This document shows positions 41,728 through 61,298 of a stretch of 64,000 nucleotides of DNA, in pieces (positions within the stretch are counted from its first letter, which is position 1; the number at the start of each line of letters is the position of its first letter). Both the position numbers and the translations under genes were made by a program. The DNA is from Bacteroidota bacterium. Its GTDB lineage: Bacteria > Bacteroidota > Bacteroidia > Bacteroidales > FEN-979. The notes under the pieces were generated by a model, which saw only the letters and a program-made list of their open reading frames with translations, was not told the DNA's origin and searched no databases. Location of the stretch: assembly GCA_026391835.1 (NCBI GenBank), contig JAPLDF010000068.1:188101-252100 (forward strand), given 5' to 3'.

Positions 41728-41741
41728 TTCGGTATATGCCG

Positions 41742-43808: not shown

Positions 43809-43826
43809 TTGTTTCCCAGTTTGTTA

Positions 43827-44063
43827 TTACCTGTTTTGTTTTTCTTCCCTGATTTGTTCCAGCAATTTCAACAATTCATCTTCCCGCCTGTCGTACTCCT
43901 CCTCGTCGATTTCGTCCATTTCAAACTTTAACTGCAAGCCCATCAGCCGTTCCTTGATGGCTCCTTCATCCGACATTTCCCGGTCGATCACCTCATTTAT
44001 CTTCTTCCCGATAAAAATTACGCCTTTCAGCGGTGCCAGAAGGATATCATCGATTAAAAACAT
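43827..44063 (-). CDS. gvpG: gas vesicle protein G
   Basis: MFLIDDILLAPLKGVIFIGKKINEVIDRE...EEYDRREDELLKLLEQI is the typical GvpG pattern. The start was chosen at ATG 44063. The ORF track starts at 44090. Confidence 0.8.
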   Translation of the reverse strand: MFLIDDILLAPLKGVIFIGKKINEVIDREMSDEGAIKERLMGLQLKFEMDEIDEEEYDRREDELLKLLEQIREEKQNR

Positions 44064-44064
44064 G

Positions 44065-44847: not shown

Positions 44848-44870
44848 AAAGACTGTTCAAAAAGTTTATT

Positions 44871-45644: not shown

Positions 45645-45645
45645 A

Positions 45646-46686: not shown

Positions 46687-46736
46687 AATCTATTATCTTA
46701 ATTGGTTGTTTTCAGTCCGCTTGTCCGCCCGTCCCT

Positions 46737-48896
46737 TCATTTCTTCACCGAATTTTGTTGAATTACAAGTTGTATCGCCTCTTCAAAATGTGCTTCCAGG
46801 ATGGAAATTTCTCCTGTAATTTCATCCTGGTTGTTGCGGTTTTTCTCTATAAGTTCCCTGATAGCGAGCATGGCCGCTTTCCGGCAGATGAATTCAATAT
46901 CCGAGCCGGTGAGCCCGTCGGTTTTAAGCGCCAGTTTTTTGATGCTGACCTTTTTCCCGAGGGGTTTGTTCCGGGTATGAATCGTGAATATTTTCTCCCT
47001 GGTGTTAACATCGGGCAGGGGCAATTCAAAAATCAGGTCGAACCGTCCGCTTCGCAGCAGGGCCGGGTCGATCAGGTCGATGCGGTTTGTTGCTGCGAGT
47101 ACAATGACTCCTTTCAGGTCTTCGATGCCGTCCATTTCGGTAAGAAACTGGCCAATGACCCTTTCGATGACCCCGGATCCTGAACTGTCGCTGCTGCGCC
47201 TGGGTGTAAGGCTGTCAATTTCATCAAGGAACAGGATGCACGGCGATGCCTGTTTTGCCATCCGGAAGAGTTCCCTGACACCTTTTTCCGACTCGCCGAT
47301 ATACCGGCTCAGGATTTGCGGCCCTTTTACTGAGATGAAATTGACACCGCTTTCGCTTGCCAGCGCTTTTGCCAGGTAGGTTTTGCCGGTTCCCGGCTTG
47401 CCGTGGAGGATGATCCCCTTGGGCGGTTTGGTATCGGCTTTTTTAAACAGTTCTGCATATTTCAGGGGCCATTCCACTGTTTCTTTCAATGCGTCCTTAA
47501 TTTCCTCAAGTCCGCCCACATCGTCCCATTTCACATCGGGAACCTCAACGAAAACCTCACGGATGGCCGAGGGTTCCACCTCCTTCATGGCATCCATGAA
47601 ATTGTCCATGGTCACCTCGAGCGACATTAAAAGTTCGTAGGGAATTTCGGCCATTTCGAAATCGATCTGCGGGAGTATTTTCCTGAGGGCGGTCATGGCG
47701 GCTTCCCGCGCCAATGCTTCAAGATCGGCGCCCACAAAGCCATGCGTGATCTCCGCCAGCTTTTCCATATCCACGTCCATCGACAGGGGAATTCCCCGCG
47801 TATGGATGTGCAGGATCTCAAGCCTTCCTTTTTTGTCGGGAATGGAGATGGAAATTTCCCGGTCGAACCGTCCCGGCCTTCTCAATGCAGGATCAATGGA
47901 ATTGGGAATGTTGGTCGCACCGATCACGATCACCTTACCCCTCGATTCCAGCCCATCCATGAGCGACAACAGCTGGGCTACCACACGTTTTTCAACCTGC
48001 TTTTCGCCGCCCATGTCCTCACGCTTGGGGGCAATGGCATCGATTTCGTCGATAAAAATGATGGAAGGAGCATGGGCCTGGGCTTCCTCAAAGAGTTTCC
48101 GGATACGCCCTTCGCTCTCACCGTAAAACTTCCCCATGATCTCGGGGCCGGAGATGTTTATAAAATAGGCATCCGTTTCATGGGCCACAGCCCTGACGAT
48201 GAGGGTTTTGCCGGTTCCCGGGGGGCCGTAGAGAAAAACCCCTTTGGGTGGCTGGACCCCGAGCCGCTCGAAGATTTCGGGATATTTCAGCGGAAGTTCG
48301 ATCATCTCCCTGATCCGCTGAACCTGGTTTCCAAGACCACCGATATCTTCGTACGAAACCTTGCTTTTGCGCTCTCCCTCCTGTTTTGCCAGTTCGAGCT
48401 GGAAAACTGTGTTCGGGTGTATCAGGACCACTCCTTCAGGGTTGACACCTGTTACGGTATAATCCACCGAACGGGAGCCAAACAGGTTGGCCCTCACCTT
48501 GTCGCCTTTTATCACCGGCAAGCCGTTGAACAGCGAACCAATGTATTTACCGTCGTCGCTTTTAAACAGCGAACCGGACTTGGTGTCGGGTTTGAGTTTT
48601 ATTTTTGCAGCCTGGCGGAAGGAGGTCTTCACGACCTTCACTTTTTCATCGATCCCGGCCTGGGCATTTTCCCTGGTAATGCCGTCAATCTGAATCAGGT
48701 TCTTGTCCCTGTCTTCGGGATAGCAGGGCATGATCTTGACCGGGGTGGCCCGTTTGCCTTCGATCACCACCAGGTCGCCACTTTCGAGGCCGAGCAGTTT
48801 CATGTCTTTCGGATCCATCCGGGCAATCGCCCTTCCCACATCTTTCACCAGGGCTTCTTTTACCCGCAGTACTATTTCTTCCTTGATTTTGGCCAT
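46737..48896 (-). CDS. Cdc48/VCP-like double-ring AAA+ ATPase
   Basis: 719 aa. Cdc48-N-like domain ([38 protein letters not shown]). D1 Walker A GPPGTGKT with Walker [10 protein letters not shown]2 Walker A GKPGTGKT with Walker B ILFLDEID. Confidence 0.9.
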
Positions 48897-48913
48897 GGTT
48901 ATATTTTTTTCCG

Positions 48914-49858
48914 CTACGACAACTCGTTAAAAAGACACCTCTTCAATTCATTCAGTGCATTCAATCCTTTGATCTCTTCAGGGAACCTGGGCACCTCCAC
49001 TTTGTTCAGGGAGCCGAAGGTTTCGCCTATTTCAGTTAAATACGGCAACTGGCCGGCTTTGCTACGCCTGCAGAAATCACATCCGTCGGAAACCATGACA
49101 TTGTTCACAATGATCTGCCTGGCAATTATTTCAGAATTGGCAAGGATCGACAGCAGCCTACCTGTTTCCATGATCGCCATCGCTTCGGGTATGCAAACCG
49201 GGATAAATTCACACCTTGTGCCGTCGCGTAAAATGTTTTCGATCCTTTTCACCGTTTTCTTCAAGCTGAGCAACAGCACATCCACCTCGTCCGGCTGGTA
49301 GGACCCGGAAAAGCTGGTGATCATGTACCGGTATTTCCAGCGCATCCTTGCCGCGACCTTGATCCACTCGTCCAGCAATTTCGGGGAGGAAATCAGCCGC
49401 AATGCATGACCGGTGGGCGCAGTATCCACAACATATTTGTCGTACTCCCCTTCCTCTATAAAATCGATGATGGTTTTGAAGCTCATCACCTCGTCAATCC
49501 CGGGAATCGAGAGGGAAAGCATCTCTTCGATATCCTGGTTATCAAGATTTGTAGATGTTTCGAACAGCTTTTTCAGTTCTGCCTGGTACCCGGTGATGAA
49601 CTCCGAAAGCGCCTCATCTGCAACCACTTCAATGGCAGAGAGGTTGTCGGTACCGTCAACCTTTACCACGTTAAAACCAATTTGCTGTTCGAGTCCGTCC
49701 GACAGCGAATGGGCCGGATCGGTGGAAATGAGAAGTGTTTTATAATTTCCGGCCAGCGCCAGGGATGTGGCAATGGCACAACTGGTTTTTCCAACACCGC
49801 CTTTTCCGCCGAAAATAATAAGTTCCAGGTCGCTGTTTTCCAAGCCAGTCAGTGCCAT
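48914..49858 (-). CDS. ArsA/Get3-family P-loop ATPase
   Basis: Deviant Walker [11 protein letters not shown], the family motif [10 protein letters not shown] and [11 protein letters not shown]. Confidence 0.85.
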
Positions 49859-49862
49859 TACG

Positions 49863-50411
49863 TTATTTTTTTATCCTGATCTCAAGAATGCCGTTTGTAA
49901 ATTTATGCCTCAGGTTTTTCCGGTCGGCTTTTTCAGGAAGCAGCAGTTCCTTGCGGTACGACCTGCTTTTGCTTACTGCCGAAATTTCAAGGATGTCTTC
50001 CTTCAGATCGATGTGGATATCGCTTTCCTCTATTCCGGGCATTTCTGCAATGATCACCAGTTCATTCTTTTCATTGAAGACATCGGTGATGGGCTCCCGC
50101 TCTTCATCCACCTTTGGTCCCTCCGGTGTTTTTTTGATATTCCCGAAGGTTTCAACCCTGGGAGAGCCTCCGCCGGCCGTATTGATGGTAAACCCATAAA
50201 CGCCTTTCATGCCTTTTTTGATGTGATCAAAGTTGATCTCCCCCTCCTTTTTTATACCACCACTTTCATCGAGTTTCCCTGCAAGGTCAACAAGTTTCTC
50301 AATGCCTTTGAAAAGGCCACCAAGTCCGAAAAGATCAAAATCGGCTTCATCTTTTTTTTCTTTTTTCTTGTCGTTTTCCATTTTATACCAGGTTTTAACG
50401 GTTCTTAACAA
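49863..50411 (-). CDS. Hsp20/alpha-crystallin family small heat-shock protein (GvpH-like position)
   Basis: ITDVFNEKNELVIIAEMPGIEESDIHIDLKEDILEISA...KFTNGILEIRIKK is an alpha-crystallin domain. The N-terminus is Lys/Glu-rich. Confidence 0.85.
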   Translation of the reverse strand: MLRTVKTWYKMENDKKKEKKDEADFDLFGLGGLFKGIEKLVDLAGKLDESGGIKKEGEINFDHIKKGMKGVYGFTINTAGGGSPRVETFGNIKKTPEGPKVDEEREPITDVFNEKNELVIIAEMPGIEESDIHIDLKEDILEISAVSKSRSYRKELLLPEKADRKNLRHKFTNGILEIRIKK

Positions 50412-50463
50412 TATTCCTTCACCGGTCCGTCCATCTGAAGGGAAGGAATCCGGTACAGGGTTA

Positions 50464-50760
50464 TCATGGTTTATTCATTGCCTCCAGTTTCTCCAGCCGC
50501 GACTCCAGCGCATCCTGTTGCTGCATCAGTTCTTTTTCCCTGGCTTTGGTTGAAAGATAGGTGTCTTCCTGCCACCAGTTTATGCCCATCTCCATCGCCT
50601 TGTCAACCGACGCCACCAGCAACCTGATCTTGATGGTCAGCAGGTCAATATCCGCAATCTGAATTTTAATATCGCCGGCAATCACGATGCCTTTGTCGAG
50701 GACTCTTTCGAGGATATCGGCCAGGCCGGTCGCCTGGATCGAATGGGTAGGTTCTGACAT
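50464..50760 (-). CDS. gvpJ: gas vesicle protein J-like (GvpA family)
   Basis: LADILERVLDKGIVIAGDIKIQIADIDLLTIKIRLLVASVDKAMEMGINWW. Confidence 0.85.
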   Translation of the reverse strand: MSEPTHSIQATGLADILERVLDKGIVIAGDIKIQIADIDLLTIKIRLLVASVDKAMEMGINWWQEDTYLSTKAREKELMQQQDALESRLEKLEAMNKP

Positions 50761-50772
50761 AACAAATTGTTT

Positions 50773-51087
50773 TTAATAATCTATTGACATGGTTTTCCAC
50801 TCCTTTTTATCATCTTTCTTTGATTTCCTGCTCTTTTCCGAGGGCCCAGGTGTATGCATTTCCCCTGCTTTTTCATCATAATATGCCTGGATCTCCTTAA
50901 GTCTGTCCTGGATGATCTCAAGCCTTTGCAAAATCCTGATCTCTTCGCTCTTCAGCCGGGTTCTCTCCTTTTCGAACATATACAGTTTAATAAAATCCGA
51001 ATCCTCCTTGTTTGGAATACCCGATTTAACTACATTCTGCATGCTTTTGATGCTCTGAAGTCCTTTTATTGCGGTGGATATTGGCAT
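50773..51087 (-). CDS. coiled-coil gas-vesicle accessory protein (possibly GvpV-like)
   Basis: 104 aa. LYMFEKERTRLKSEEIRILQRLEIIQDRLKEIQ resembles the pattern I recall for cyanobacterial GvpV. This is weak, memory-based evidence. Confidence 0.35.
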   Translation of the reverse strand: MPISTAIKGLQSIKSMQNVVKSGIPNKEDSDFIKLYMFEKERTRLKSEEIRILQRLEIIQDRLKEIQAYYDEKAGEMHTPGPSEKSRKSKKDDKKEWKTMSIDY

Positions 51088-51092
51088 ATGGC

Positions 51093-51140
51093 TTGGATTT
51101 GAAGATTTGAAAATTTGACAATTTGAAGATTTGAAAATCT
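51093..51140. repeat. octamer tandem repeat (GAARATTT-like) x6 filling the spacer downstream of gvpN
   Basis: ttggattt gaagattt gaaaattt gacaattt gaagattt gaaaatct. Confidence 0.9.
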
Positions 51141-51152
51141 TAAAATAATTCT

Positions 51153-52070
51153 TCAGGAATATTGTTCAATAAGTTCATTCACAATGATTTTTACCTTTTC
51201 CTGGTTGGTTTTTGATCCAATCCGGCTGGTTTCGGACGTGAGGATGTCCTGGCATATTTTCCGGAACATATCCTTTGATTTTGACGGCGTTGTTTTTAAT
51301 GTCGCCAGGGTTTTTGCAATCATGATGGAACCACGGATGGTCGGATCGAATTCAGTTTTCCCCGATTCGCGCAACCCTCTCACAATCTTCACGATGATTT
51401 CGGTATCCTTCAATGAAAGCAGAGATTTTGCCCGGGTGATCTGCAATTCCGTTTCATAGTCAAAATGATCCAGATCCATGGTCACCATGCGGTCGCGCAA
51501 GGCATCCTGGGTACGGTTCACCCCTGCGTACTCCTCGGGATTTGAGGTAAAGATGGCACGGAATTCGGGATGCACCTTCATGTAGTAATCCTCCTCCTTT
51601 GCCGCCGAAGTGCTCAGCATTCTCTCCTGCAGGATGGGAAGCAGGATGTTGTTGGCTTCGGGACGTGAACGCGTGAACTCGTCATATATCAGTGTAAACC
51701 CGTTTTTTACGGCAATGGTCAAACGGTTGTTCACCCACTGCTTGGTCATGTCCTCTTCATACTTATGCACCGAATGAATAAACTTGTCATCCAGCTTTTT
51801 GTACTTATATCCCTGTTCACTGCCAATGAGATCGGACGTTTTATACTCGGCATCGCCATGGATGATCACCACCGGGCGGCCTATTTTACTGGCCAGGTGC
51901 ATGGCTACGGTCGTTTTCCCGGTACCCGACGGCCCCCTGAAATGAACAGGGAATCCGGCTTTGATATAGGTCAGACCACGGTTGGTGATATCCCTGATAT
52001 AGTCTGTTTCTACAAAATTTGACATCGGCTTCAGTTCGAGCACGGTATTCATTTCATTGTTGTCGCTCAT
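51153..52070 (-). CDS. gvpN: gas vesicle protein N (AAA+ ATPase)
   Basis: FVETDYIRDITNRGLTYIKAGFPVHFRGPSGTGKTTVAMHLA, Walker B LIYDEFTR and a size of 305 aa. Confidence 0.92.
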   Translation of the reverse strand: MSDNNEMNTVLELKPMSNFVETDYIRDITNRGLTYIKAGFPVHFRGPSGTGKTTVAMHLASKIGRPVVIIHGDAEYKTSDLIGSEQGYKYKKLDDKFIHSVHKYEEDMTKQWVNNRLTIAVKNGFTLIYDEFTRSRPEANNILLPILQERMLSTSAAKEEDYYMKVHPEFRAIFTSNPEEYAGVNRTQDALRDRMVTMDLDHFDYETELQITRAKSLLSLKDTEIIVKIVRGLRESGKTEFDPTIRGSIMIAKTLATLKTTPSKSKDMFRKICQDILTSETSRIGSKTNQEKVKIIVNELIEQYS

Positions 52071-52083
52071 GGATAGAGGTTGT

Positions 52084-52121
52084 GAAGATTTACGATTTAC
52101 GATTTTTGATTTACGATTTTT
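52084..52121. repeat. short tandem repeat (ACGATTT-like) upstream of gvpN
   Basis: gaagattt acgattt acgattttt gattt acgattttt. Confidence 0.8.
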
Positions 52122-52154
52122 GCATTTTATACTTTCCCTTTTGCTTTTTGATTT

Positions 52155-52337
52155 TTATCCAAAGGGTTTGTTTGGGATTTGTTTCAGCGACTCCTCCCAC
52201 ATGGCTCCGGCCTCTTCAATTTCCCTGAGGATGAGTTCTCTTTTAAGTAAAAACTCCCTCTTCCCGGCCTGGAACCGTTCCATTGCTTCCTGTCGTTTTT
52301 TCAGGCTGTTCCTGATACCACTTGCCGCATCCTTCAT
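52155..52337 (-). CDS. small helical hypothetical protein (60 aa)
   Basis: Same strand as the cluster and tightly bounded by repeat spacers. It has a charged amphipathic sequence, RQEAMERFQAGKREFLLKRELILREIEE. No family is recognised. Confidence 0.35.
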   Translation of the reverse strand: MKDAASGIRNSLKKRQEAMERFQAGKREFLLKRELILREIEEAGAMWEESLKQIPNKPFG

Positions 52338-52340
52338 TTT

Positions 52341-52372
52341 CCAATTTTCAAATTTTCAAATCTTCAAATTTC
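52341..52372. repeat. octamer tandem repeat (CAAATYTT) x4, inverse orientation of the 51093-51140 array
   Basis: ccaatttt caaatttt caaatctt caaatttc. Positions 52348-52369 are the exact reverse complement of 51097-51118. Confidence 0.9.
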
Positions 52373-52682
52373 AACAGACACCCCGGCCTTTACATTGGGT
52401 ACAAGGCAGGCCATCGCCCGATTTACCGCTTCCGTTGCATTGCCGGCATTTTTTATTGTTTTCGACATGGTTGTTTCCCTTTCCGCCGCATACGATACAC
52501 GGCACCCTTGCACCCAACGGATTTTTACCGGAACCGTCACAAAACACACACTTTTTCATGGGTTCATCAACCCCAACGCTCCCGGTGCCATTGCAAACGA
52601 GGCATTTTGAGATCGGAGAAAGCAGGTCAAAAGGATCCTTTCCCGTGGCGCTGCAAAACGGACAATTGAATGTTTTTATCAT
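52371..52682 (-). CDS. stand-alone DnaJ-type (CR) zinc-finger protein, six CxxCxGxG repeats
   Basis: 103 aa with CPFCSATG, CLVCNGTG, CVFCDGSG, CIVCGGKG, CRQCNGSG and CTQCKGRG. Confidence 0.7.
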   Translation of the reverse strand: MIKTFNCPFCSATGKDPFDLLSPISKCLVCNGTGSVGVDEPMKKCVFCDGSGKNPLGARVPCIVCGGKGNNHVENNKKCRQCNGSGKSGDGLPCTQCKGRGVC

Positions 52683-52699
52683 GGGTTGAGAATAGGTAC

Positions 52700-52965
52700 G
52701 GTTCGAGATAGTTGGTGGCTTCGGCTTCGCTCAGCCACCGGATGTGCTCAGCCACCATAAGCGCTAAGCCACCGGATGACTTCGACCTTGCTCAGTACCC
52801 GGGTACCCACCCGGACGCTTCAACCTAGTTCGTGCCAGGAGCCCCACCCCGGACACTTCAATCCTACGCGTACCCCGGGTACCCACCCCGGATACTGAGC
52901 GTAGCCGAAGTGTCTGCGGGTTGGGTTAACTGAGCGAAGCCGGTTTCCCGACCCCACCCAGTACC
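52700..52965. repeat. degenerate GC-rich direct or inverted repeat spacer inside the gvp locus
   Basis: Recurrent motifs are gctcagccaccgg, gctaagccaccgg, (g)tacccgggtacccacc(c)cgga and cttc(g/a)a(c/t)c. No credible ORF is present. Confidence 0.6.
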
Positions 52966-52972
52966 CCAAACG

Positions 52973-54193
52973 CTATTTTATCGGATAATAAATATTATCA
53001 ATTTTCTGAACTTTTCCTCCATCGAGCAACGTTTTTGCAGTATACCCGAGCTTCATCCTTGTTTCGCCGAGGGGTTCTTCCATTTCCGAGATCTTAACCC
53101 CCTTGGGATGCTTGTTGATATAATCCAGGACTTTCTGATCCAGTGTTCTGGTATCTGAAAGAACCGCCTTAACTGCTGCAACGGGAGTTTCTTTAACAAC
53201 TTCCGCGGAAGCCTCCTTTTTCACCTCTTTCTTTTCGGTTTTCTTTACGGTCTGCTTCGGTGCGGGGGCAACGCCTGTTTTCCTTACGTGGGCCATTGTT
53301 TCCTGCATTTTATTCCATTCTGCCGAGGCATCAACCCTGTTTTGCAGCAAATCATCCAGCATCCCGGCAGTGGCTTTTTGAACATCCCTGACCTCTTTCT
53401 GAATTCCCTTGATTGAAACATGAATTCCCTTCATGATCGCATTGTAATCGGTGATCCTGTCTGTTTCGCCTTTGGAGAGATCTTTTCTCAGTTTTTGGGC
53501 CATTTTCTGATTTTCCCTCCCGATTTCCGACAGCCTCTTCTGGAAGCCATGCAGCAGTGCCCTGGTATAATCGACTCTTTCACCAAGGTTTTTGCCCAAT
53601 TCCGCTTTCAGTTCTTCCGACATCTCCTTGTGTTCCTTTTCAAACCGGTCGAGCATGTTGTTCGTGTTCAGGAAGATCGTTGAAACCTCATCGTTGATGA
53701 TTTTAATATCGTCGCCGATATTCGACATGAGTGCATCAAACTCCGCCATCCTGTTCTTTTCCTCCTGCATCCTGTCGGCCCGGCCCTGTGCAAAGGTTTT
53801 ATCCAGGTCGTCGGCCATGTGTGCCCGGTCTTTTGTGAATTCGCTGATCATTTTGAAGGTGGAAGTTTGAATGGCCACCACTTCATGCTGAATGGAGGCG
53901 ATTGTTCCATGGATCCCCGACATCAACCCGTTAAAATTGTGCAGCCGTTCTTTCTCCCCGCGCGCAAGACCTTTCCTCAGGGCAGCGGCATTTGCATTCA
54001 ATGCTACAGCCAATTCCATATGATCCTTGCGGAAACCGTCGAGGGTTACCTGGACGTCATTAACAAGTTCTTCATTTTCCCTGATGCGTTGCTTGAACGA
54101 AGCAAGTAACTCTTCTGTCAACACCTTCATGTCTGATGCTAGTCCCATTTGTTTATCTCCTATTTTAAATGAATTTAATGTTTCCTGGGTCAA
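52973..54193 (-). CDS. helical-repeat protein with Lys/Ala/Val linker and C-terminal winged-helix-like domain (GvpC-position protein, long paralogue)
   Basis: 406 aa. Internal repeats are LRKGLARGEKERLHNFNGLMSGIHGTIASIQHEVVAIQ, RADRMQEEKNRMAEFDALMSNIGDDIKIINDEVSTI and LRKDLSKGETDRITDYNAIMKGIHVSIKGIQKEVRDVQ. The tail is LDYINKHPKGVKISEMEEPLGETRMKLGYTAKTLLDGGKVQKI. Confidence 0.7.
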   Translation of the reverse strand: MTQETLNSFKIGDKQMGLASDMKVLTEELLASFKQRIRENEELVNDVQVTLDGFRKDHMELAVALNANAAALRKGLARGEKERLHNFNGLMSGIHGTIASIQHEVVAIQTSTFKMISEFTKDRAHMADDLDKTFAQGRADRMQEEKNRMAEFDALMSNIGDDIKIINDEVSTIFLNTNNMLDRFEKEHKEMSEELKAELGKNLGERVDYTRALLHGFQKRLSEIGRENQKMAQKLRKDLSKGETDRITDYNAIMKGIHVSIKGIQKEVRDVQKATAGMLDDLLQNRVDASAEWNKMQETMAHVRKTGVAPAPKQTVKKTEKKEVKKEASAEVVKETPVAAVKAVLSDTRTLDQKVLDYINKHPKGVKISEMEEPLGETRMKLGYTAKTLLDGGKVQKIDNIYYPIK

Positions 54194-54798
54194 CTGATTT
54201 CCTTAATGATTTGATTTTTAACAATTTTTATGTCTTCAATCCGGATATGATCGCCTTTTTCAAGCAGTCCTTCCAGGCACTCCATCATCCTGTTGTGCAT
54301 GTGCTGAAATTCCAGGAACGTCTTCATCACCGTTTCCTTTCTCGACTCCTGCAATTTTGAAACCTGTGAAAGCTGGTCCTTGATGATGTTAATCTTTTCG
54401 GTAGCATCCTGGGATGCAATATCTTTAATGCCCAGCAGGCTCGCTTTCAGCGATTGGGCAGTCTCTTTCTGCGCTTCAATGAATGAGAGGAACAAACTTT
54501 CGGCGGCCCGTTCTTTTTCATCGAGTGCACAAAGAATGCCTGACATCATTGCGTTGTAATCTTTTTTCCGAAGGGAACCCTTTTTGGCGAGGGTTTCGCA
54601 CAACCTCGAATTCATGATATCCCGCTCCTTTTTCAGATCGTGCAGTGAGTTATGCACATTATCGAACAGGGAGTGGGACGATTCAGTAATGTATTCGGAC
54701 GACTGGAAAGCAGTTTGTATTTTCTGGATGCGGTTTTCGTATGAGGTTATGATGTTGTTGAAAAAACCATCGATGTTTAATTCGGGCAGGGGACTCAT
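54190..54798 (-). CDS. helical-repeat protein, short paralogue of 52973..54193
   Basis: It shares the repeat LRKKDYNAMMSGILCALDEKE. It has a 4-nt overlap with the next gene. The likely start is ATG 54798 (MSPLPEL). The ORF track uses TTG 54804. Confidence 0.65.
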   Translation of the reverse strand: MSPLPELNIDGFFNNIITSYENRIQKIQTAFQSSEYITESSHSLFDNVHNSLHDLKKERDIMNSRLCETLAKKGSLRKKDYNAMMSGILCALDEKERAAESLFLSFIEAQKETAQSLKASLLGIKDIASQDATEKINIIKDQLSQVSKLQESRKETVMKTFLEFQHMHNRMMECLEGLLEKGDHIRIEDIKIVKNQIIKEIS

Positions 54799-54957
54799 AT
54801 TCAATTATTAATTTATTTACAAACAGGGTGTTGGGTTATGGGATGGTTGTGCTGGCTATTCAGGGGCTGAAAAAGAAATTCTTGGTAATCCATGCTTTCA
54901 TGTATTAAACAGGGAAGGATGTCTTAGCAAGAATAGCTGTTAAACTGCAGGACTGCC

Positions 54958-55161
54958 TTATGCGGCTTTTGCAGTCAATCCGATTGCTTCAGCATACTTC
55001 AGGTATGTCTCAACAGAGGCAACAACGATTCTTGCTTCAATTGCAAGCAGTTCGATACCTACCAATGAAACTCTTACCCATGCATCAACTACGACACCTT
55101 TGTCAAGGATACGGTCGATAACTTCTACCAGGCTGGATGATCCGATCGTCTTTTCTACCAT
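54958..55161 (-). CDS. gvpA: major gas vesicle structural protein GvpA
   Basis: 67 aa. [55 protein letters not shown] is near-canonical GvpA. AGGAG lies 9 nt upstream of the ATG. Confidence 0.95.
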
Positions 55162-55313: not shown

Positions 55314-55487
55314 AAACGCAAAAAAAAATCATTTTTTTTCAGGAGGAAATTCACCGGTGATGAATGATCGCAGGATTACCGGCAAACGGCAAATTAATCG
55401 CGTAGCCTACGCGAAAACGCGTGGGGCTGCCTGGCTTATATCTCCCTATCTTTGCATCATTATTTAAAAGATTTAGAGAGTCGAAAT

Positions 55488-56129
55488 ATGAAGAGATTAT
55501 TATATATCCCGATGCTCCACAATCAAACTGATTTAGGATCACTTGGCGGCAGATTATCCATTGAGGGAGGGAAAAAATATGGAATTTCCAACTGGCAGGA
55601 GCACGTTGAGCAGGTTGATAAATCGTGGCATAGGATAGATGCTGAAATTTCCAGGCTTATCAGGCGCATATCACCCGGCAAGATCAAAATTTACCAGGAC
55701 GGGTTACCGGCGGTTGATGAAGTTGGAAGAAAAATCGTGCAGGAAGCCGCTAAAAGCGGCAGCATAAATTACAGGATCATCGATGACCTGATGGTACGGG
55801 GAGCAAAACTGGAAATCGCTGAAAACAAAGAATTGTTGCTCAGGGAGTATTTTCTTCTGACTGATATAGCGAAGGCTGAAACCCCTGAAGATGCGTTAAA
55901 AGCCTACCAGGATTACCAAAAAGTGGCGCAGGAACTGCTGAATGACCGGGATACCCATATCGCAAACCAGATCAATGCGACACTTGCCAACGGGGAAACC
56001 GGGATTGCATTTTTTGGTGCGGCCCATGCCATCACAGGCAAATTAAACAAAGACATAAAAGTAACTGTCATTCAAATGTTTACCGACGACATTTCTCGGT
56101 TTTTACTTAACAACCCGGGTCAAGCGTAG
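55488..56129 (+). CDS. TraB/GumN/Tiki-superfamily-like protein (hypothetical)
   Basis: N-terminal YIPMLHNQTDLG, with C-terminal NDRDTHIANQINATL...GIAFFGAAHA. This resembles the GxxH ... RDxxM ... G.aH pattern of TraB-family proteins. The start was chosen at ATG 55488. Confidence 0.45.
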   Translation: MKRLLYIPMLHNQTDLGSLGGRLSIEGGKKYGISNWQEHVEQVDKSWHRIDAEISRLIRRISPGKIKIYQDGLPAVDEVGRKIVQEAAKSGSINYRIIDDLMVRGAKLEIAENKELLLREYFLLTDIAKAETPEDALKAYQDYQKVAQELLNDRDTHIANQINATLANGETGIAFFGAAHAITGKLNKDIKVTVIQMFTDDISRFLLNNPGQA

Positions 56130-57498
56130 CGATAGCATACTTTTTAATCTTCCTGCTTAGGGCATCACGGTGTATTCCAAGGGCATTGGCGGCGGCCTGC
56201 TGGTTGTAGTTGGCTTTTTTGAGCGCCTTTTGTATCAGTCGGACCTCGTTGTTTTTCAGGTTCACTGAATCGACTTCATCCGCCGGTGGCGTTTTTATTT
56301 TTGGTGCTACAGGGAAATCATTGGCCCCAAGCGTGTTTCCCTTGCACAAAATGATGGCTCTTTCAGCCAGGTTTTTCAGTTCCCTCACATTTCCCGGGAA
56401 ATCATATTTCATAAGGAGATCAAAAACTTCAGTTGAAACGCGCAGGCTTGGTTTATTGAATTTCGTGGCAAAAACATCGACAAAATGGGTCAGCAGGGGT
56501 TTGATGTCTTCGGGTCTTTCCCTGAGCGCCGGGATATGTATATGCAGCGTATTGAGCCTGTGCAGCAGGTCGAGCCTGAATTTCTTCTTCTCCACCCTTT
56601 TGTTGATGTCATGGTTTGTGGCCGAAATAATACGGAAGTTGGTACGGATCTGGGCTGTATCCCCAACCCTGGTAACCACCTTTTCTTCGGAAGCACGCAG
56701 AATTTTCGCCTGCAGGTTCAAAGGCATGTCAGCGATCTCATCAAGAAAAAGGGTCCCGCCGTTACACAACTCGAAAAAGCCCATTTTATCGGTGATGGCC
56801 CCGGTAAAAGAGCCTTTTTTGTGTCCGAAAAACTCGCTCTCCAACAGCGTTTCCGTAATTGCGCTGCTGTTAACAGCCCCAAAAATATGGTCCTTCCTGA
56901 TGCCTGAATAGTGTATGATCCTGGCAATGTTCTCCTTTCCCGTACCACTCTCCCCGGTGATCAGAACATTGGCGTCGGGATAATTTGCCGCGGCCAGCGC
57001 CTGGTCAAATACTTCCAAAATCTTCGGGCTGACGCCGATAAACTGCCGGTCGATTTTTTCTTCAAGGGATTTTGAGATCAATGAATTTTTCTCTTCCATC
57101 TGCTTCAGCCTTCGCTGCATCTGAAGATATTTCTGGGTGCGCTCAATGGCAATCTGGATGTCGAGGAACCTGAAGGGTTTGCGCAGGTAATCGAACGCAC
57201 CGAGCCGCATGGCTTTGATCACGGTATCCATATCGCCGTGCGCCGAAATGATGATGACTTCCATGAAGGGGTAATCATTTTTCACCTCCTTCAGGATATC
57301 CAGGCCATTTACGCCTGGAAGCCTGACGTCGAGGATGAGGAGGTCGATTGCGTGGCTGGTCAGGATCTTCTTTCCTTCGGCTGCAGTGTTGGCCTCGAAG
57401 GAATCAAAGTTCGAATCCACAAAAAAACCACTCAACTCTTCTGTAAACTGTTTCTCATCATCAAGGATCAGGATCTTTATCTTGTCTTTTCCTTCCAT
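56107..57498 (-). CDS. sigma-54-dependent response regulator (NtrC/Fis family enhancer-binding protein)
   Basis: REC domain (LLILDVRLPGVNG). AAA+ domain with GESGTGKE, the GAFTGA-like loop GSFTGA and ESEFFGH. C-terminal Fis-type HTH NYNQQAAANALGIHRDALSRKIKKY. Confidence 0.92.
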   Translation of the reverse strand: MEGKDKIKILILDDEKQFTEELSGFFVDSNFDSFEANTAAEGKKILTSHAIDLLILDVRLPGVNGLDILKEVKNDYPFMEVIIISAHGDMDTVIKAMRLGAFDYLRKPFRFLDIQIAIERTQKYLQMQRRLKQMEEKNSLISKSLEEKIDRQFIGVSPKILEVFDQALAAANYPDANVLITGESGTGKENIARIIHYSGIRKDHIFGAVNSSAITETLLESEFFGHKKGSFTGAITDKMGFFELCNGGTLFLDEIADMPLNLQAKILRASEEKVVTRVGDTAQIRTNFRIISATNHDINKRVEKKKFRLDLLHRLNTLHIHIPALRERPEDIKPLLTHFVDVFATKFNKPSLRVSTEVFDLLMKYDFPGNVRELKNLAERAIILCKGNTLGANDFPVAPKIKTPPADEVDSVNLKNNEVRLIQKALKKANYNQQAAANALGIHRDALSRKIKKYAIATLDPGC

Positions 57499-57506
57499 AT
57501 TATCTT

Positions 57507-60500
57507 TTACTTTTGAATGTTCAGTACAATTTTAACCGTTGTTCCCTGCATCATGTTGCTCGCAATGTCAATGGTTCCGTCCATTGCCTTTATAATCTGA
57601 TAGCAAATGGATAATCCGAGGCCGGTTCCCTTTCCCTCGTCCTTGGTCGTATAAAAAGGGAGCAGGATATGGTTGATATCATCATTGCTGATGCCTATGC
57701 CATTGTCTGACACTTCAACGATCAGCGACAGATTTTCCTGGTATGACCTGATACCGACAATCAATTCGGTAAATCCATCCTGGTGGCTTTTTTTGTCGAT
57801 CACCGCATCTTTGGCATTTACCAGCAGGTTTATGATAACCTGTTCAAATTCATAGGTATTTCCAAATATCTGGGGAAGCTGTTTTTCAAGGTCAAGGTTG
57901 AGGCTTATTCCAAGGTGTTTGAACTGTTCAGCGATCATTGAAACACCATTTTCGATGCTTGCGTTGATATCGAAAGCCGTCAGCACATAATCATCATGGC
58001 TTCTCGAAAATGCCCTGACATGATCAATGATGTTCCTGATCCTGGTGATATTTTCAAAGATCTTTTCCGATTTGGCTGTCAGGAACCCGACGTCGACCGA
58101 TGCGGTTTTTGCCGTCTCGAACAGGATTTTATCCATCACCATTGAGATGATATTAAGCGGCTGGTTGATCTCATGGGCAATACCCGAAGCCATCTCGCCA
58201 AGGTTGGCCATCCGGTCGGCATGCATCTGTTTTGTCTCGGTTTTTTTGCGCTGCGATATATCACGGACAATGATCATAAACGACAAGGGGTTGCCCCCAG
58301 GGTCCTGGATCAACGTTGTGCTGATTTCGGCGGGGAACAGGGACTGGTTTCTTTTTCTGATCTTCAGCTCAATATTCTGAGCCAGCCCTTCGTTCATAGT
58401 CTTTTCATACAAATCACGGAGGGCATCCCGTTCTTCGGAAGGTACGAAGAGCATGGCACTTTTCCCGACCAGGTCATTGCGGGAGATGGCGCCGAACAAT
58501 TCAAGACCGATTTCGGATGCTTCGGTAATGATGCCATTGAGGTCGATCAGTAAAATTCCATCCGGCGAAGCGTTTAGCATTGTTTTGTATTTTTCTTCGC
58601 TGACTTTTCTCGCCTGTTCGGCCAGTTTGAGGTCGGTGATGTCCTCGGAGATGCCCAGCAGGTATTCCGGTTCACCGTTGGCGTTAAACATGGGCACTTT
58701 CTGGGTATGCAGGATCCGAAGCCCTTTGTTCCTGGTCTGTATCGGCTCTTCGGGGATGTCGATCATGACCCTGTTGCGTATCACTTCGCGGTCCTTTTCC
58801 ACAAAGCTGTCGGCCTGTTCTTTAGAAAAGAAATCATAATCACTTTTACCGACAAGATCTTCCATGGTGTAGCCCAGCAGGTTCTCCCCGGCCCGGTTGA
58901 TACGGACAAAACGGAAGTCCACTGCGTCCTTGATAAATATCATATCCGGAATATTGTCAATGACCGAATCCAGGAAATTGTTCACCCGGCGTATCTCCTC
59001 ATCGGCCAGCTTGCGCCGGGTAATGTCACGTATGATCCCGGTGAAAAACTTGCCCGAAGCTGTCTCCCACGCCGCCAGGGAAATTTCTATCGGGAACTCA
59101 TTGCCGTTTTTATGCAACCCGAAGAGTTCCACTGTTTTTCCAATAAAATGGCTGTCTCCTCCCCTGATGATCCGTTCGATATATTCAGTGTGCTCCCGGG
59201 CATATTGCTGCGGCATGATTGTCTTGAGATTTTTTCCGACAATTTCGTCATGAGTATAGCCGAATACTCTTTCTGCACCTTTGTTCCAGCCAATGATGAT
59301 CCCGCCGCTGTTGGCTGAGATGATCGCATCGTTCGCCGACTGCGTCACAGCACGGAACCGCTCTTCGCTTTCACGAAGCATCTCCTCCGCCTGTTTCCGA
59401 TTGGTGATGTCATGAACAACGGTATACCGGAACTTTTTATCCTGGATTTGGATAATTTCAGCCGAAAGCAGGACATGTTTGATCTCGCCGTTCTTCGCCC
59501 TTAGGGTTGCTTCGAGATTCGATTCATTCTGCCTGACTGCTATCGCTTTCATGAGCCCTTTTAAACTTTCATCGGTTAAAATACCCAGTTCCAGAGCCGT
59601 TTTGCCAATCACTTCATCCTTGTCAAATCCCAGCAGGTTATAAAATGCTTCATTCACTTCGATGTATTCGCCGGTAACATAATCGCTCAATCCGCAAGCG
59701 GATGGATTGAGATAGAACACTTTGGAGAATTTCTCCTCCGACAGTTTAATCTGGGTAATGTCTTTACTGACCCCGAAAATTACCGGTTTCCCATCCCAAT
59801 AGCCCTTCGACACCTTTGTTTCAACGGCGATGTGAATTCCGGATTTGGTCATAATAGGAATGGGGCAGAATGCGGTTACTCCAAGCAACATCTCATCGAT
59901 GATTCTTGCGGCCTCAATACGGAGTTCAGGCGGATGAACCATGAGCATTGAATTTCCGAAAAGTTCTTCGTGCTCGTAACCGAGCCGGTCAGTAACGGTT
60001 TTATTGGCGTGAACAATGTTCCCCTGAACATCGATCACAAAGAGGAAATCGTCAATGGCATTAAAAAAAGTCTCAAAGTTTTGCTGTGTTTGCTGCAGTA
60101 ATCTTTCGGTCTGTATACGACGTGTGATATCAATTACGTTTAACAGGCATTGCTGTTCGTTTGCAAAAACGATTCCTTCGATATGGACATTTGCCGGCTG
60201 CCCCCCCCCGGCTTCTATGATTATTTCACATATTTGCTTGGTTTTCGTTTTCAAAACAGCTTGAAAAAAAGCATTGAAAGAATGACGTGTTTTCTTTGAA
60301 ACAAAGTCATCGAAATGAAGGTTCATCAAGCGTGAACGCTCACTTCCAAGCATGCGTGCACCGCTGTGGTTGAGCTCCTCGATTGCTTTTTCCTTCGACA
60401 GTGTAAAATATGCCGACGGGGCGAAATCGTATAGTTCCGTATATTTCTGGGAAGCGATCTCTATTTTGATATTTGCCTGGAGAAGTTCTTCATTCTGCAT

Positions 60501-61298
60501 TTCAAGTTCAACCTGGTGCGTTCGCAGGTTTTCTTCCATCTCCTTCCGCTGAGAGATGTCCTTGGCAAAACCGAGAAACCGTGTTTCAGAAAGTTTAACT
60601 GCTTCCAAAACCATCCAGCGCGTTTTACCGTGTTTATCCCTGAACATCAAATCGGCCTGTGATGATCCGGTGCTGACCAATTTTCTGAGATGAGCCATAC
60701 CATCTTCGCGTGATTCTTCAGGAAGGAAATCTGAAAAAGACATTTCAAGCAATTGCTCCTTCGAATACCCGGTCATGCGGCATGCAGCAGGGTTTACCTC
60801 AATATATTTTCCTGTCTCATCAATGATAAAAACACCGTCGGGAGCATGGTCAATATAGTCCTTGTATTTTTGTTCGCTTATTGCAAGGGAAGTATTTAAT
60901 TTAATCAACTCCCGCCGGTTAACGGCCTCCCTGAGTTCGCGTTCTACAACCGGGATGAAGCGCGACATTTTTCCCTTGAGCAGGTAATCGTGCACGCCTG
61001 ATTTGATCAGTTCAACTGCCTTTTCCTCTCCGATCATCCCCGAAATAACAATAAACGGAATGTCGGTGCCATGGGCATGATAAATTTCGAGTGCCGATTG
61101 GACACTGAAACGGGGCATGGAATAATCGGAAAGAATGATGTCCCAGCTGGTTTGTTCCAGCGCGGCCTGCATCTCCTCACCCGTCTCGATCCGCCGGTAG
61201 GTTACATTGTACCCTCCCGTCCTGAGCATCCGTATGTTGATCTCGGCATCAGCCTCGCTATCCTCGATAACCAGTACATTCAGGTTCTTTCCAGACAT
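57507..61298 (-). CDS. hybrid sensor: N-terminal receiver, about seven PAS domains, HisKA and HATPase
   Basis: 1263 aa. REC domain (DIILSDYSMPRFS), an internal HQVELEMQNEEL...YTELYDFAPSAYFTL cassette, H-box IAHEINQPLN and G-boxes DNGIGI and GTGLGL. Confidence 0.9.
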   Translation of the reverse strand: MSGKNLNVLVIEDSEADAEINIRMLRTGGYNVTYRRIETGEEMQAALEQTSWDIILSDYSMPRFSVQSALEIYHAHGTDIPFIVISGMIGEEKAVELIKSGVHDYLLKGKMSRFIPVVERELREAVNRRELIKLNTSLAISEQKYKDYIDHAPDGVFIIDETGKYIEVNPAACRMTGYSKEQLLEMSFSDFLPEESREDGMAHLRKLVSTGSSQADLMFRDKHGKTRWMVLEAVKLSETRFLGFAKDISQRKEMEENLRTHQVELEMQNEELLQANIKIEIASQKYTELYDFAPSAYFTLSKEKAIEELNHSGARMLGSERSRLMNLHFDDFVSKKTRHSFNAFFQAVLKTKTKQICEIIIEAGGGQPANVHIEGIVFANEQQCLLNVIDITRRIQTERLLQQTQQNFETFFNAIDDFLFVIDVQGNIVHANKTVTDRLGYEHEELFGNSMLMVHPPELRIEAARIIDEMLLGVTAFCPIPIMTKSGIHIAVETKVSKGYWDGKPVIFGVSKDITQIKLSEEKFSKVFYLNPSACGLSDYVTGEYIEVNEAFYNLLGFDKDEVIGKTALELGILTDESLKGLMKAIAVRQNESNLEATLRAKNGEIKHVLLSAEIIQIQDKKFRYTVVHDITNRKQAEEMLRESEERFRAVTQSANDAIISANSGGIIIGWNKGAERVFGYTHDEIVGKNLKTIMPQQYAREHTEYIERIIRGGDSHFIGKTVELFGLHKNGNEFPIEISLAAWETASGKFFTGIIRDITRRKLADEEIRRVNNFLDSVIDNIPDMIFIKDAVDFRFVRINRAGENLLGYTMEDLVGKSDYDFFSKEQADSFVEKDREVIRNRVMIDIPEEPIQTRNKGLRILHTQKVPMFNANGEPEYLLGISEDITDLKLAEQARKVSEEKYKTMLNASPDGILLIDLNGIITEASEIGLELFGAISRNDLVGKSAMLFVPSEERDALRDLYEKTMNEGLAQNIELKIRKRNQSLFPAEISTTLIQDPGGNPLSFMIIVRDISQRKKTETKQMHADRMANLGEMASGIAHEINQPLNIISMVMDKILFETAKTASVDVGFLTAKSEKIFENITRIRNIIDHVRAFSRSHDDYVLTAFDINASIENGVSMIAEQFKHLGISLNLDLEKQLPQIFGNTYEFEQVIINLLVNAKDAVIDKKSHQDGFTELIVGIRSYQENLSLIVEVSDNGIGISNDDINHILLPFYTTKDEGKGTGLGLSICYQIIKAMDGTIDIASNMMQGTTVKIVLNIQK

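Follow-up and report, generated by a model that had tools for sequence, protein, structure and literature searches.

GvpC sits on the outer surface of gas vesicles, from which detergent or urea can strip it; it stiffens the vesicles and raises their collapse pressure. It offers a handle for tuning the mechanics of gas vesicles, both in nature and in the engineering of acoustic reporter genes, and to our knowledge nearly all descriptions of it so far come from cyanobacteria, haloarchaea and a few proteobacteria. The cyanobacterial protein (PF01304; Anabaena, Nostoc) is all alpha-helical, has 33-aa repeats, and carries neither a disordered linker nor a winged helix. Its binding motif lies on a conserved helical face, and it docks on the alpha2 helices of the major shell protein GvpA (PMC9994262). 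The protein of the haloarchaeon Halobacterium salinarum is very acidic and consists of N-terminal helical repeats of 32-40 aa, an extended linker and a compact, zinc-finger-like C-terminal domain; through this globular end GvpC molecules contact one another and bind GvpN, O, F, H, I and L (PMC9372576). In both groups gvpC sits between gvpA and gvpN, i.e., the reference loci of Nostoc and Halobacterium have the order gvpA-gvpC-gvpN.

Two other types of systems are also relevant here. EutK, a bacterial microcompartment shell protein, carries a small C-terminal winged helix (PF16365) on a structural component of a proteinaceous organelle. Phasins of the PhaF type and exchangeable apolipoproteins, which are not gas-vesicle proteins, are amphipathic helical coats of a hydrophobic intracellular body. 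In PhaF, a histone-H1-like tail ties the granules to the nucleoid.

We analysed a freshwater Bacteroidota gas-vesicle cluster in a 64-kb window (the whole stretch of DNA under study, 64,000 nucleotides), in which two unannotated genes, called here S and L, lie between gvpA and gvpN. We propose, at a probability of roughly 0.65, that they encode two paralogous, shell-coating GvpC proteins and that the longer one, L, displays a winged helix on a flexible tether.

Two unannotated genes in the gvpC position

The gene gvpA (54958..55161, minus strand; 67 aa) encodes the major shell protein and was identified with Pfam PF00741 (Gas_vesicle) and the NCBIfam GvpA model. At the far end of the slot lies gvpN (51153..52070, minus strand), an AAA+ ATPase recognised by NCBIfam TIGR02640 with 344 bits. 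The intervening genes are S (54190..54798, minus strand; 202 aa), L (52973..54148, minus strand) and, directly after L, a 103-aa zinc-finger gene (52371..52682, minus strand; DnaJ-type CXXCXGXG, Pfam PF00684). The open reading frames and the Pfam and NCBIfam matches thus give the order gvpA-S-L-zinc finger-gvpN, all on the minus strand, and confirm the claim of the earlier note that two genes directly follow gvpA in the gvpC position. The order is kept in related loci wherever the neighbour is visible (S in 70/70, gvpA in 43/43, gvpN in 72/72 and the zinc finger in 74/77). It was also found in distant clusters and in the cultured Polaribacter irgensii 23-P.

The start of L had been placed at TTG 54193, giving a protein of 406 aa whose gene overlaps S by 4 nt, with translational coupling between the two. 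We rejected this start, and the overlap is an artefact of it. L almost certainly starts at ATG 54148 and encodes 391 aa (stop codon 52973-52975), as suggested by several features of the sequences: this ATG is preceded by ATAGGAGATAAAcaa, the same Shine-Dalgarno-like element as that of gvpA; the database entry is the 391-aa form; the homologues all begin MGL.SEMK; and the gap between S and L is never shorter than 28 nt in 74 related loci, with a median of 47 nt. With this start there is therefore no 4-nt overlap between S and L and nothing that indicates translational coupling. L is transcribed, since two 151-nt contigs of a lake metatranscriptome match it exactly.

The region between gvpA and S (54799..54957, minus strand) contains an imperfect hairpin, AUUCUUG...CAAGAAU, followed by UUCUUUUUC. 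This could, with low confidence, be a candidate leaky terminator giving a high ratio of gvpA to S and L; the fold of the whole region is not significant (z-score of -0.38), and a consensus scan did not list the hairpin. Genes for a sigma-54 activator and for a PAS histidine kinase lie immediately upstream, in the window and in relatives alike. No sigma-54 -24/-12 promoter was matched 5' of gvpA at up to two mismatches, and the matches across the whole 64-kb window are fewer than expected by chance.

Public data contain 850 family representatives at 50% identity, most of them from Bacteroidota of fresh water and the sea. The 571 homologues of S are all hypothetical or bear unrelated generic names from their sources, and literature searches on GvpC with a winged helix, and on the gas-vesicle genes of Bacteroidetes, Flavobacteria or Polaribacter, turned up no account of S and L. 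The genome scan was run with a narrower alignment (A4), because alignment A3 was too diverse for it. A tblastn search of 72,556 plasmids with L and one distant relative gave no match.

S and L are repeat-bearing paralogues

The helical domain of L (aa 1-292; 53273..54148, minus strand) contains three ungapped copies of a 65-aa repeat, which is longer than the 40-60 aa estimated before. Self-alignment and offset analysis (with the row layout, for the first) place them at aa 39-103 (53840..54034), aa 104-168 (53645..53839) and aa 202-266 (53351..53545), all on the minus strand, with 33-aa half-units at aa 6-38 and 169-201. The copies match one another with shuffle z-scores of 22.9, 10.6 and 9.2, and none of 300 shuffles equalled the observed score. 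As had been reported, L has the core motif R-x3-[FY]-x2-[LI]-M-x-[GN]-I in three places (F72, F137 and Y235). By eye and post hoc, the aromatic residues at 39, 72, 104, 137, 169, 202 and 235 show a spacing of about 33 residues; a periodogram of the aromatic, Arg, Met and hydrophobic positions of L gave no significant signal for a lattice of 33 residues. The repeat periods of relatives vary widely (33, 40, 44, 51, 58, 65, 73, 91 and 98 aa), and their lengths are always near a whole number of helical turns. Variable repeat length is common to this family and to haloarchaeal GvpC.

The paralogy of S and L, proposed in the earlier note, was borne out. When diverse alignments of the two are compared, positions 6-212 of S are collinear with 4-213 of L (hhalign 98.7%, E 1.7e-16; column-shuffled control 12.3 ± 2.0), i.e., S resembles the N-terminal half of L along its whole length. 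S also matches the third copy of L with a shuffle z-score of 6.6, again with none of 300 shuffles as high, and a natural S-L fusion exists (P0351). S had been credited with one repeat copy: it does have a single core motif (R-x3-Y-x2-M-M-x-G-I, R77-I88, with Y81), but its kinship to L extends over the entire protein.

Remote homology to cyanobacterial GvpC

The earlier note suggested that the two proteins may be non-homologous analogues of GvpC. Profile comparisons argue otherwise. The profile of the diverse L family matches an alignment of 15 cyanobacterial GvpC sequences with the N-termini aligned (hhalign 87%, E 4e-6, score 46.7), and two more sub-optimal matches were found (78% and 66%). 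The reversed control scored 13.9 and the column-shuffled one 10.7 ± 2.1 (10-18 for these controls overall). The segment of L closest to the N-terminus of GvpC (ALMEKIRQEHRSIAEEVSQLFKETHEFL) is the second half of repeat 2 (ALMSNIGDDIKIINDEVSTIFLNTNNML).

Further evidence comes from members of the L family other than that of the window. A GvpC HMM gives 72.4 bits for P0318, 45.4 for P0291 and 38.0 for P0331, while reversed decoys of equal composition do not exceed 9.9 bits. These three proteins belong with L (E of 1.8e-30, 8.2e-42 and 7.6e-26, respectively, against the L-family profile of the window), and they have true 33-aa repeats, as in cyanobacterial GvpC, together with the winged-helix tail and the gene order of the window. 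The HMM match in L-family members is collinear from residue 1, and the N-terminal non-repeat segment of GvpC is matched as well. In P0318, the alignment preserves the register of six of the seven binding positions published for GvpC (L4, L12, R19, Q26, L30 and F33).

L of the window scores only 13.4-13.8 bits with the same HMM, and its link to GvpC is therefore transitive; it does come out on top of 417 six-frame segments of the window (13.8 bits, followed by 7.0). Taken alone it is too diverged, which explains why the earlier reading found no resemblance to GvpC. Profile comparisons do not connect S directly with GvpC, to which it would be tied solely through L. A comparison with haloarchaeal GvpC gave no similarity; the layout of L, with helical repeats, an extended linker and a compact C-terminal domain, is that of the haloarchaeal protein and speaks for a place among GvpC proteins. 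The curated models of GvpC (Pfam PF01304 Gas_vesicle_C, NCBIfam GvpC) match neither L, S nor 18 relatives, in scans with an E-value limit of 1 (L, S and ten relatives) or 10 (the other eight). The remaining Pfam and NCBIfam output for these proteins is sub-threshold noise (DUF948, apolipoprotein, phasin, BAR). A PDB profile search with the L family returned apolipoprotein A-I as the sole result (E 0.019), which we take as compositional, amphipathic similarity.

Could the likeness to GvpC be convergent, S and L having independently invented an amphipathic helix that binds the ribs? A common GvpA lattice would select the same period and the same types of residues, the curated models fail, and the direct score of the window protein is weak. 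Profile scores between amphipathic helical families can also be spurious: with reversed S, the L family reaches 36.7, which is not far under the 46.7 obtained with GvpC. Yet the bit scores of the three relatives stand well clear of decoys that have the same composition, the matches are collinear from the first residue and keep the 33-aa register with its binding positions, and the non-repeat segment is matched too. We therefore consider convergence quite improbable. The evidence says that S and L are very distant relatives of GvpC, i.e., highly diverged paralogous members of its superfamily, with L placed there transitively and S by way of L.

An amphipathic stripe along the helical domain

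Both proteins had been predicted to be nearly all alpha-helical, and the AF2 models agree. The helical domain of L is an amphipathic helix by analysis of its periodicity and faces: a stripe with one coherent phase (99.5 degrees, 3.62 residues per turn) runs across all 292 residues, and none of 300 shuffles had a periodicity power as high, for conservation and hydropathy alike. The conserved face has Leu (18), Ile (12), Arg (9) and Phe (8), and the opposite face has Lys, Ala, Asp and Gln. Cyanobacterial GvpC has a comparable conserved face of Leu, Phe and Arg at about 3.6-3.65 residues per turn, with the reference peaking at 98.5 degrees.

The AF2 model of S (pLDDT 72, pTM 0.62; helices 9-72, 78-122, 132-180 and 187-201) is a compact helical bundle, which we counted against an extended rod, and the helix of L is broken at aa 173-177 and 226-229. 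The breaks in L and the bundle of S, as modelled, would fit a soluble bundle equally well as an extended rod. In Foldseek searches S matched generic helical bundles and BAR/eisosome domains, all at E-values of 0.08 or more, and these matches were uninformative.

A soluble bundle would suit assembly chaperones or nucleation factors that, during assembly, cover the hydrophobic face of GvpA or the growing edges of the shell for a short time, much like exchangeable apolipoproteins or phasins; S and L would then be absent from mature vesicles or sub-stoichiometric in them. The bundle predicted for S is in line with such a role, and chaperone-type genes are unusually numerous in the cluster (Hsp20, ArsA, CDC48-like AAA, the DnaJ-type zinc finger and a fusion of GvpF/L with a J domain). 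There is also a weak likeness to the models of apolipoprotein A-I, ApoLp-III, phasin and HsbA, but all of these matches are under the family thresholds. GvpC itself is a stable surface component, so homology to it speaks against a transient role, and a stripe that keeps one phase for 292 residues is better suited to a long periodic lattice than to the capping of monomers. We thus regard chaperones as an unlikely explanation and a coat on the shell as the better one. The outer-surface scaffold suggested in the earlier note remains the best-supported function, as predicted from the gvpC slot, the homology to GvpC and the amphipathic stripe.

A winged helix on a flexible spacer

L is twice the length of cyanobacterial GvpC and also differs from it at its C-terminus. 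The helical domain is followed by a K/E/P/V/A-rich linker that is predicted to be disordered (aa 293-334; 53147..53272, minus strand), consistent with the KKxE/AV-rich linker described before; AF2 gives it a pLDDT below 50 at aa 296-333. Its length differs across the family (alignment A1, columns 301-400), and some relatives have a tandem expansion of ETPVEVVK.

The last 57 residues (aa 335-391; 52976..53146, minus strand) are a winged helix, modelled with a pLDDT of about 85-88 and the topology H-H-H-strand-strand (helices 336-345, 353-360 and 364-376; strands 380-383 and 386-389). The winged-helix-like module noticed earlier is thus real, with bounds slightly tighter than the 52976-53161 given then. 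Foldseek aligns it with the winged-helix domains of Zalpha, IclR, MarR and O-methyltransferase proteins (TM 0.75-0.88, rmsd 1.2-2 Å), at E-values of only 0.04-0.3. No Pfam model matched the tail of the window protein. Among 29 tails of the family, matches were obtained to MarR_2 (9, best E 6.8e-8), EutK_C (7, all sub-threshold), HTH_IclR (6) and HTH_24 (4). In a separate scan of relatives, P0372 exceeded the HTH_24 cut-off (22.1 vs 21.9 bits); the EutK structure 3i71 is among the weak matches in the PDB. Helix 3 and the wing have conserved basic residues, among them an invariant Lys. In some relatives, AKP-rich tails like those of histone H1 precede the winged helix or replace it (as in P0329). 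A Zalpha-type function looks unlikely, as the Asn and Tyr of helix 3, which we take to be its key residues, are apparently not conserved when compared by eye.

Does L regulate the operon? The earlier note raised the alternatives that L ties vesicles to DNA or acts as a regulator. It might bind DNA through the winged helix and oligomerise through a coiled-coil-like domain, with S as a partner or antagonist. The confidently predicted fold, the conserved basic residues and the matches of related tails to MarR_2, HTH_IclR and HTH_24 are all compatible with a protein that regulates the gvp operon by binding DNA. Against this, the helical domain resembles GvpC and has a period, 3.62 residues per turn, that is not that of a heptad coiled coil, L lies within the structural gvpA...gvpN block at every locus, a long disordered spacer of variable length is atypical of a transcription factor, and the net charge of the tail is only +2. 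The regulatory role is less likely because of the homology to GvpC and because dedicated regulators, the sigma-54 activator and the histidine kinase, are encoded just upstream here and in relatives; we consider it very improbable.

Haloarchaeal GvpC provides a precedent for a shell-coating protein that ends in a compact domain. The two have no detectable sequence similarity, and the end domain is zinc-finger-like in one and a winged helix in the other, but the globular interaction hub of Halobacterium GvpC is a model for what the winged helix of L may do. EutK shows a similar combination, carried by an unrelated protein and with weak matches to the tails.

A model for S and L

If S and L coat the shell, each would form a long amphipathic alpha-helix that runs along the GvpA ribs on the vesicle exterior. 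The conserved Leu/Ile/Phe/Arg stripe would dock on the exposed alpha2 helices of one GvpA subunit after another, in the manner published for cyanobacterial GvpC (PMC9994262). The docking would tie the subunits together and raise the collapse pressure. In an alignment with the GvpA of Nostoc, Polaribacter and Halobacterium, the alpha2 helix of the window GvpA differs from that of Nostoc at one position. An ancestral unit of about 33 residues may have been fused into the 65-residue super-repeats of L; each would make 18 helical turns over about 97 Å and cover roughly eight GvpA subunits, so that a rod of 292 residues would span about 35 of them.

The winged helix would project into the cytoplasm on its flexible spacer of about 42 residues. 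There it may dock on or cross-link other copies of GvpC, accessory Gvp proteins or neighbouring vesicles, or else bind nucleic acid. S, whose presence beside L is a further difference from cyanobacterial GvpC, would be the tail-less form that coats the shell and displays nothing. A more speculative and rather doubtful version is that the winged helix, or the H1-like tails of relatives, may bind DNA and thereby tether vesicles to the nucleoid or cross-link them into ordered clusters. If true, this would be a built-in system for positioning and segregating a gas-filled organelle, like PhaF for PHA granules; the resemblance to phasins and apolipoproteins is an analogy of mechanism alone, and their sequence similarity is sub-threshold. 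S would then dilute the tethers and set their density on the shell.

Implications

These results would turn a large unannotated family into a GvpC lineage whose repeat length is flexible, from 33 to 98 aa, and which combines a modular display domain on a spacer with a tail-less paralogue. They supply a putative name for two hypothetical proteins that are present in hundreds of genomes. In L, nature would already have furnished a GvpC with a cargo or adaptor domain, which raises the question of the role of a winged helix on the surface of a gas vesicle. The matching gene order in P. irgensii 23-P, a cultured bacterium, makes experiments on this question feasible.

Two adjacent genes occupy the gvpC slot

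The gas-vesicle cluster lies at about 41380-55161 on a contig from a freshwater metagenome, and its genes are on the minus strand. It starts with gvpA (54958-55161; Pfam Gas_vesicle, NCBIfam GvpA), followed downstream by S (54190-54798, an ORF of 202 aa), L (391 aa, with its stop codon at 52973), a zinc-finger protein of DnaJ type (52371-52682), an ORF of 60 aa and gvpN (51153-52070; TIGR02640, 344 bits). The earlier note had begun L at TTG 54193, giving 406 aa and a 4-nt overlap with S. We prefer ATG 54148: ATAGGAGATAAA precedes both this codon and gvpA, the public protein collection contains the 391-aa form, thirty L homologues share the N-terminus MGL.SEMK as their alignment start, and across 74 related loci the S-L gap is at least 28 nt (median 47 nt). 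S and L are therefore adjacent and do not overlap. Apart from this start codon and the repeat length, which becomes 65 aa, the earlier observation essentially stands.

A collection of 5.8 billion proteins holds 502 homologues of L and 571 of S, mostly from metagenome-assembled genomes of Bacteroidota, all of them hypothetical or carrying unrelated generic source names. An exhaustive profile search gave 850 L-family representatives at 50% identity (388 below 1e-10), in which the number of repeats varies and the tail is the same. Scanning one genome per species produced 80 loci, nearly all in Bacteroidota (Bacteroidales, Prolixibacteraceae, Lentimicrobiaceae, Flavobacteriaceae and Algoriphagus), with bins of Ignavibacteriae and Neomarinimicrobiota as well. 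They include the cultured Polaribacter irgensii 23-P, whose genus is described as gas-vacuolate and whose gene order is that of the window. Across these loci S adjoins L (70/70), with gvpA upstream (43/43) and, on the downstream side, gvpN (72/72) and the zinc-finger protein (74 of 77). Distant members whose repeats have 33 or 51 aa keep this order. The slot of S and L is that of gvpC in Nostoc and Halobacterium.

S and L share a repeated helical domain

In L there are three ungapped repeats of 65 aa (aa 39-103, 104-168 and 202-266) and two half-units of 33 aa (aa 6-38 and 169-201). Its self-similarity is highest at offsets 163, 65 and 98, accompanied by side peaks at +7, and the repeat copies reach z = 22.9, 10.6 and 9.2 against shuffles. 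The core motif reported previously recurs as R-x3-[FY]-x2-[LI]-M, with the Arg, the aromatic residue and the Leu/Met on one helical face.

The similarity between S and L is modest with shallow alignments (BLASTP E 2e-5; hhalign 64%). With diverse alignments, S 6-212 is collinear with L 4-213 (hhalign 98.7%, E 1.7e-16, score 118.8; column-shuffled controls 12.3 +/- 2.0, reversed 36.7), which identifies S, at the level of sequence, as a paralogue that corresponds to the N-terminal half of L and lacks the tail. One metagenomic relative, P0351 (519 aa), has S-like and L-like parts in a single polypeptide, its residues 21-197 matching the S family at 97.7%; it is either naturally fused or the product of a read-through gene call. 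P0391 (616 aa) is only a longer member of the cluster of another relative, P0301.

The predicted rod and its possible fit to GvpA

The AF2 model of L, built on a 31-sequence alignment, has helices at 3-172, 178-225 and 230-291 and a disordered stretch at aa 296-333. S is predicted to be a helical bundle (pTM 0.62) with generic fold matches only. In the L family, the spectra of conservation and of hydropathy over all 292 helical residues each have one peak, at 99.5 degrees or 3.62 residues per turn, and 0 of 300 shuffles were as strong; the local phase varies by no more than about +/- 30 degrees from one end of the domain to the other. Residues counted on the conserved face are Leu (18), Ile (12), Arg (9) and Phe (8); the opposite face has Lys (24), Ala, Asp and Gln. 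For cyanobacterial GvpC the peak is at 98.5 degrees and the face is composed of Leu, Thr, Gln and Arg. The L-family periodicity is distinct from that of a heptad coiled coil (102.9 degrees) and places 65 residues in 18 turns; by our arithmetic, each of the family's repeat periods (33, 40, 44, 51, 58, 65, 69, 73, 91 and 98) is near a whole number of turns.

In the published model, the 33-residue GvpC repeat (49.5 Å) spans four GvpA subunits (about 50.8 Å) on helix alpha2, and Glu52 and Glu59 contact GvpC (PMC9994262). The 11-residue alpha2 of the window GvpA differs from that of Nostoc at one position. A 65-aa repeat of L (97.5 Å) would thus cover about eight GvpA subunits, and the entire rod (438 Å) about 35.

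L ends in a predicted winged helix

The C-terminal domain of L is predicted as H-H-H-strand-strand (pLDDT 85-88 in the same model) and superposes on winged-helix domains in Foldseek (TM 0.75-0.88, rmsd 1.2-2 Å): Zalpha (4wcg, 7c0i, 1j75), IclR (1mkm), MarR and the dimerisation domains of O-methyltransferases. Owing to the small size of the domain, the E-values reach only 0.04-0.3. The window tail matched no Pfam model; among 29 diverse family tails, MarR_2 matched 9 (best E 6.8e-8), EutK_C 7, HTH_IclR 6 and HTH_24 4, one tail exceeding the HTH_24 cut-off. Conserved basic residues lie where helix 3 begins and in its middle, and the wing has an invariant Lys; the net charge of the L tail is only +2. 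These features would allow nucleic-acid binding without demonstrating it.

The linker before this domain is disordered and variable in length. In some relatives, P0047 among them, it is enlarged by five to six tandem 8-aa units, ETPVEVVK (columns 320-380 of the alignment of L homologues), and spacer length therefore evolves quickly by slippage. Two other relatives carry AKP-rich sequence: in P0329 (377 aa) a long histone H1- or Hc2-like tail (PKPAAKKPAPKP...) replaces the winged helix, and in P0365 (394 aa) an H1-like stretch serves as the linker. Such sequences are a hint that C-terminal modules in the family might bind polyanions.

According to reviews, haloarchaeal GvpC consists of helical repeats joined by an extended linker to a compact domain at the C-terminus; in Halobacterium this domain is responsible for contacts between GvpC molecules and also binds GvpN, O, F, H, I and L (PMC9372576). 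The layout of L is alike, but L has a winged helix where haloarchaeal GvpC has a zinc-finger-like module.

Chaperone-type neighbours, regulators and expression

The zinc-finger-like motif of haloarchaeal GvpC is in cis. In the window a separate zinc-finger protein follows L. Its 103 aa consist almost wholly of DnaJ-type CXXCXGXG repeats, without a J domain, and it may be a dedicated Gvp holdase. The 290-nt spacer between the two genes (52683-52972) is dense in G+C-rich direct and inverted repeats (the 17-nt CGCTCAGCCACCGGATG three times, GTACCCGGGTACCCACCC three times, inverted arms of 13-25 nt) and resembles a REP-like or miniature element that has been inserted; in relatives the spacer has only 5-88 nt. 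After gvpN comes a 104-aa coiled-coil protein of no family (50773-51087), at the position that gvpO has in haloarchaea; in Polaribacter irgensii a protein of equal length occupies the matching place (locus L080, 8528-8842).

Further downstream are a GvpJ-like protein, Hsp20 (49863-50411), ArsA (48914-49858), a CDC48-like double AAA protein (46737-48896), five GvpF/L paralogues in a row (41742-46686) and GvpK. The GvpF/L protein at 45646-46686 carries a fused DnaJ J-domain at its C-terminus (PF06386 and PF00226); GvpG (43827-44090) and a weak GvpO-like ORF of 95 aa (43521-43808; PF05800, E 0.001, below the cut-off) are interleaved among the paralogues. With the J-domain fusion, Hsp20, ArsA and the double AAA protein, the cluster is unusually rich in chaperone-type genes.

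Directly upstream of gvpA, a response regulator dependent on sigma-54 and a large histidine kinase with multiple PAS domains (56107-61298, minus strand) form an arrangement kept in relatives; no canonical TGGCAC-N5-TTGC element was found upstream of gvpA within 2 mismatches. Between gvpA and the activator lies a 225-aa ORF (55452-56129, plus strand) with a weak TraB/PrgY/GumN match (E 1.5e-4, below the cut-off). It seems specific to the window's lineage, since this spacer has only about 250 nt in Polaribacter and another relative. Directly after the gvpA stop codon (54799-54957, minus strand), a long imperfect hairpin is followed by UUCUUUUUC (a U-run), which may, with low confidence, be a leaky, attenuating terminator; the entire gvpA-S spacer folds no better than shuffles. 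In one lake metatranscriptome, two contigs of 151 nt match exactly within L (depth 3), and pieces of the GvpJ-like gene are present; the gvpA word depth of about 9000 is inflated by related species.

A divergent branch of the GvpC superfamily

Curated models (Pfam, NCBIfam) gave no GvpC match for L, S or the tested relatives. We aligned gvpC of a Nostoc sphaeroides plasmid with 14 cyanobacterial GvpC sequences. The diverse L alignment matches this reference from both N-termini (hhalign 87%, E 4e-6, score 46.7, 114 columns; reversed 13.9, 60 column shuffles 10.7 +/- 2.1, maximum 18), and further matches (78% and 66%) place the N-terminal segment of GvpC on L repeats 1 and 2, in the second half of each. 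This score alone is not decisive, because the L family scored 36.7 against reversed S. The case for homology is carried by the HMM of the GvpC alignment and its reversed decoys (maximum 9.9 bits): the L-family members P0318, P0291 and P0331 reach 72.4, 45.4 and 38.0 bits, others 35, close relatives of L 21-25 and L itself 13.4. When the window was cut into 417 six-frame segments, L ranked first with this HMM. Members with high scores combine 33-aa repeats with the winged-helix tail, and match the window L-family profile at E 1e-26 to 1e-42. Of the published binding motif (PMC9994262), successive repeats of P0318 retain L4, L12, R19, Q26, L30 and F33; F11 is replaced by Met or Thr. Similarity between haloarchaeal GvpC and the L family was not found.

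The earlier note had suggested that S and L may be non-homologous analogues of GvpC. Position and likely role hold, but the HMM scores against decoys, together with hhalign, argue against non-homology. As judged from these profiles, S and L form a divergent branch within the GvpC superfamily that lacks annotation. Their architecture of super-repeats, spacer, winged helix and tail-less paralogue is new, and their putative role on the vesicles is likely that of a scaffold encoded in the gvpC slot.
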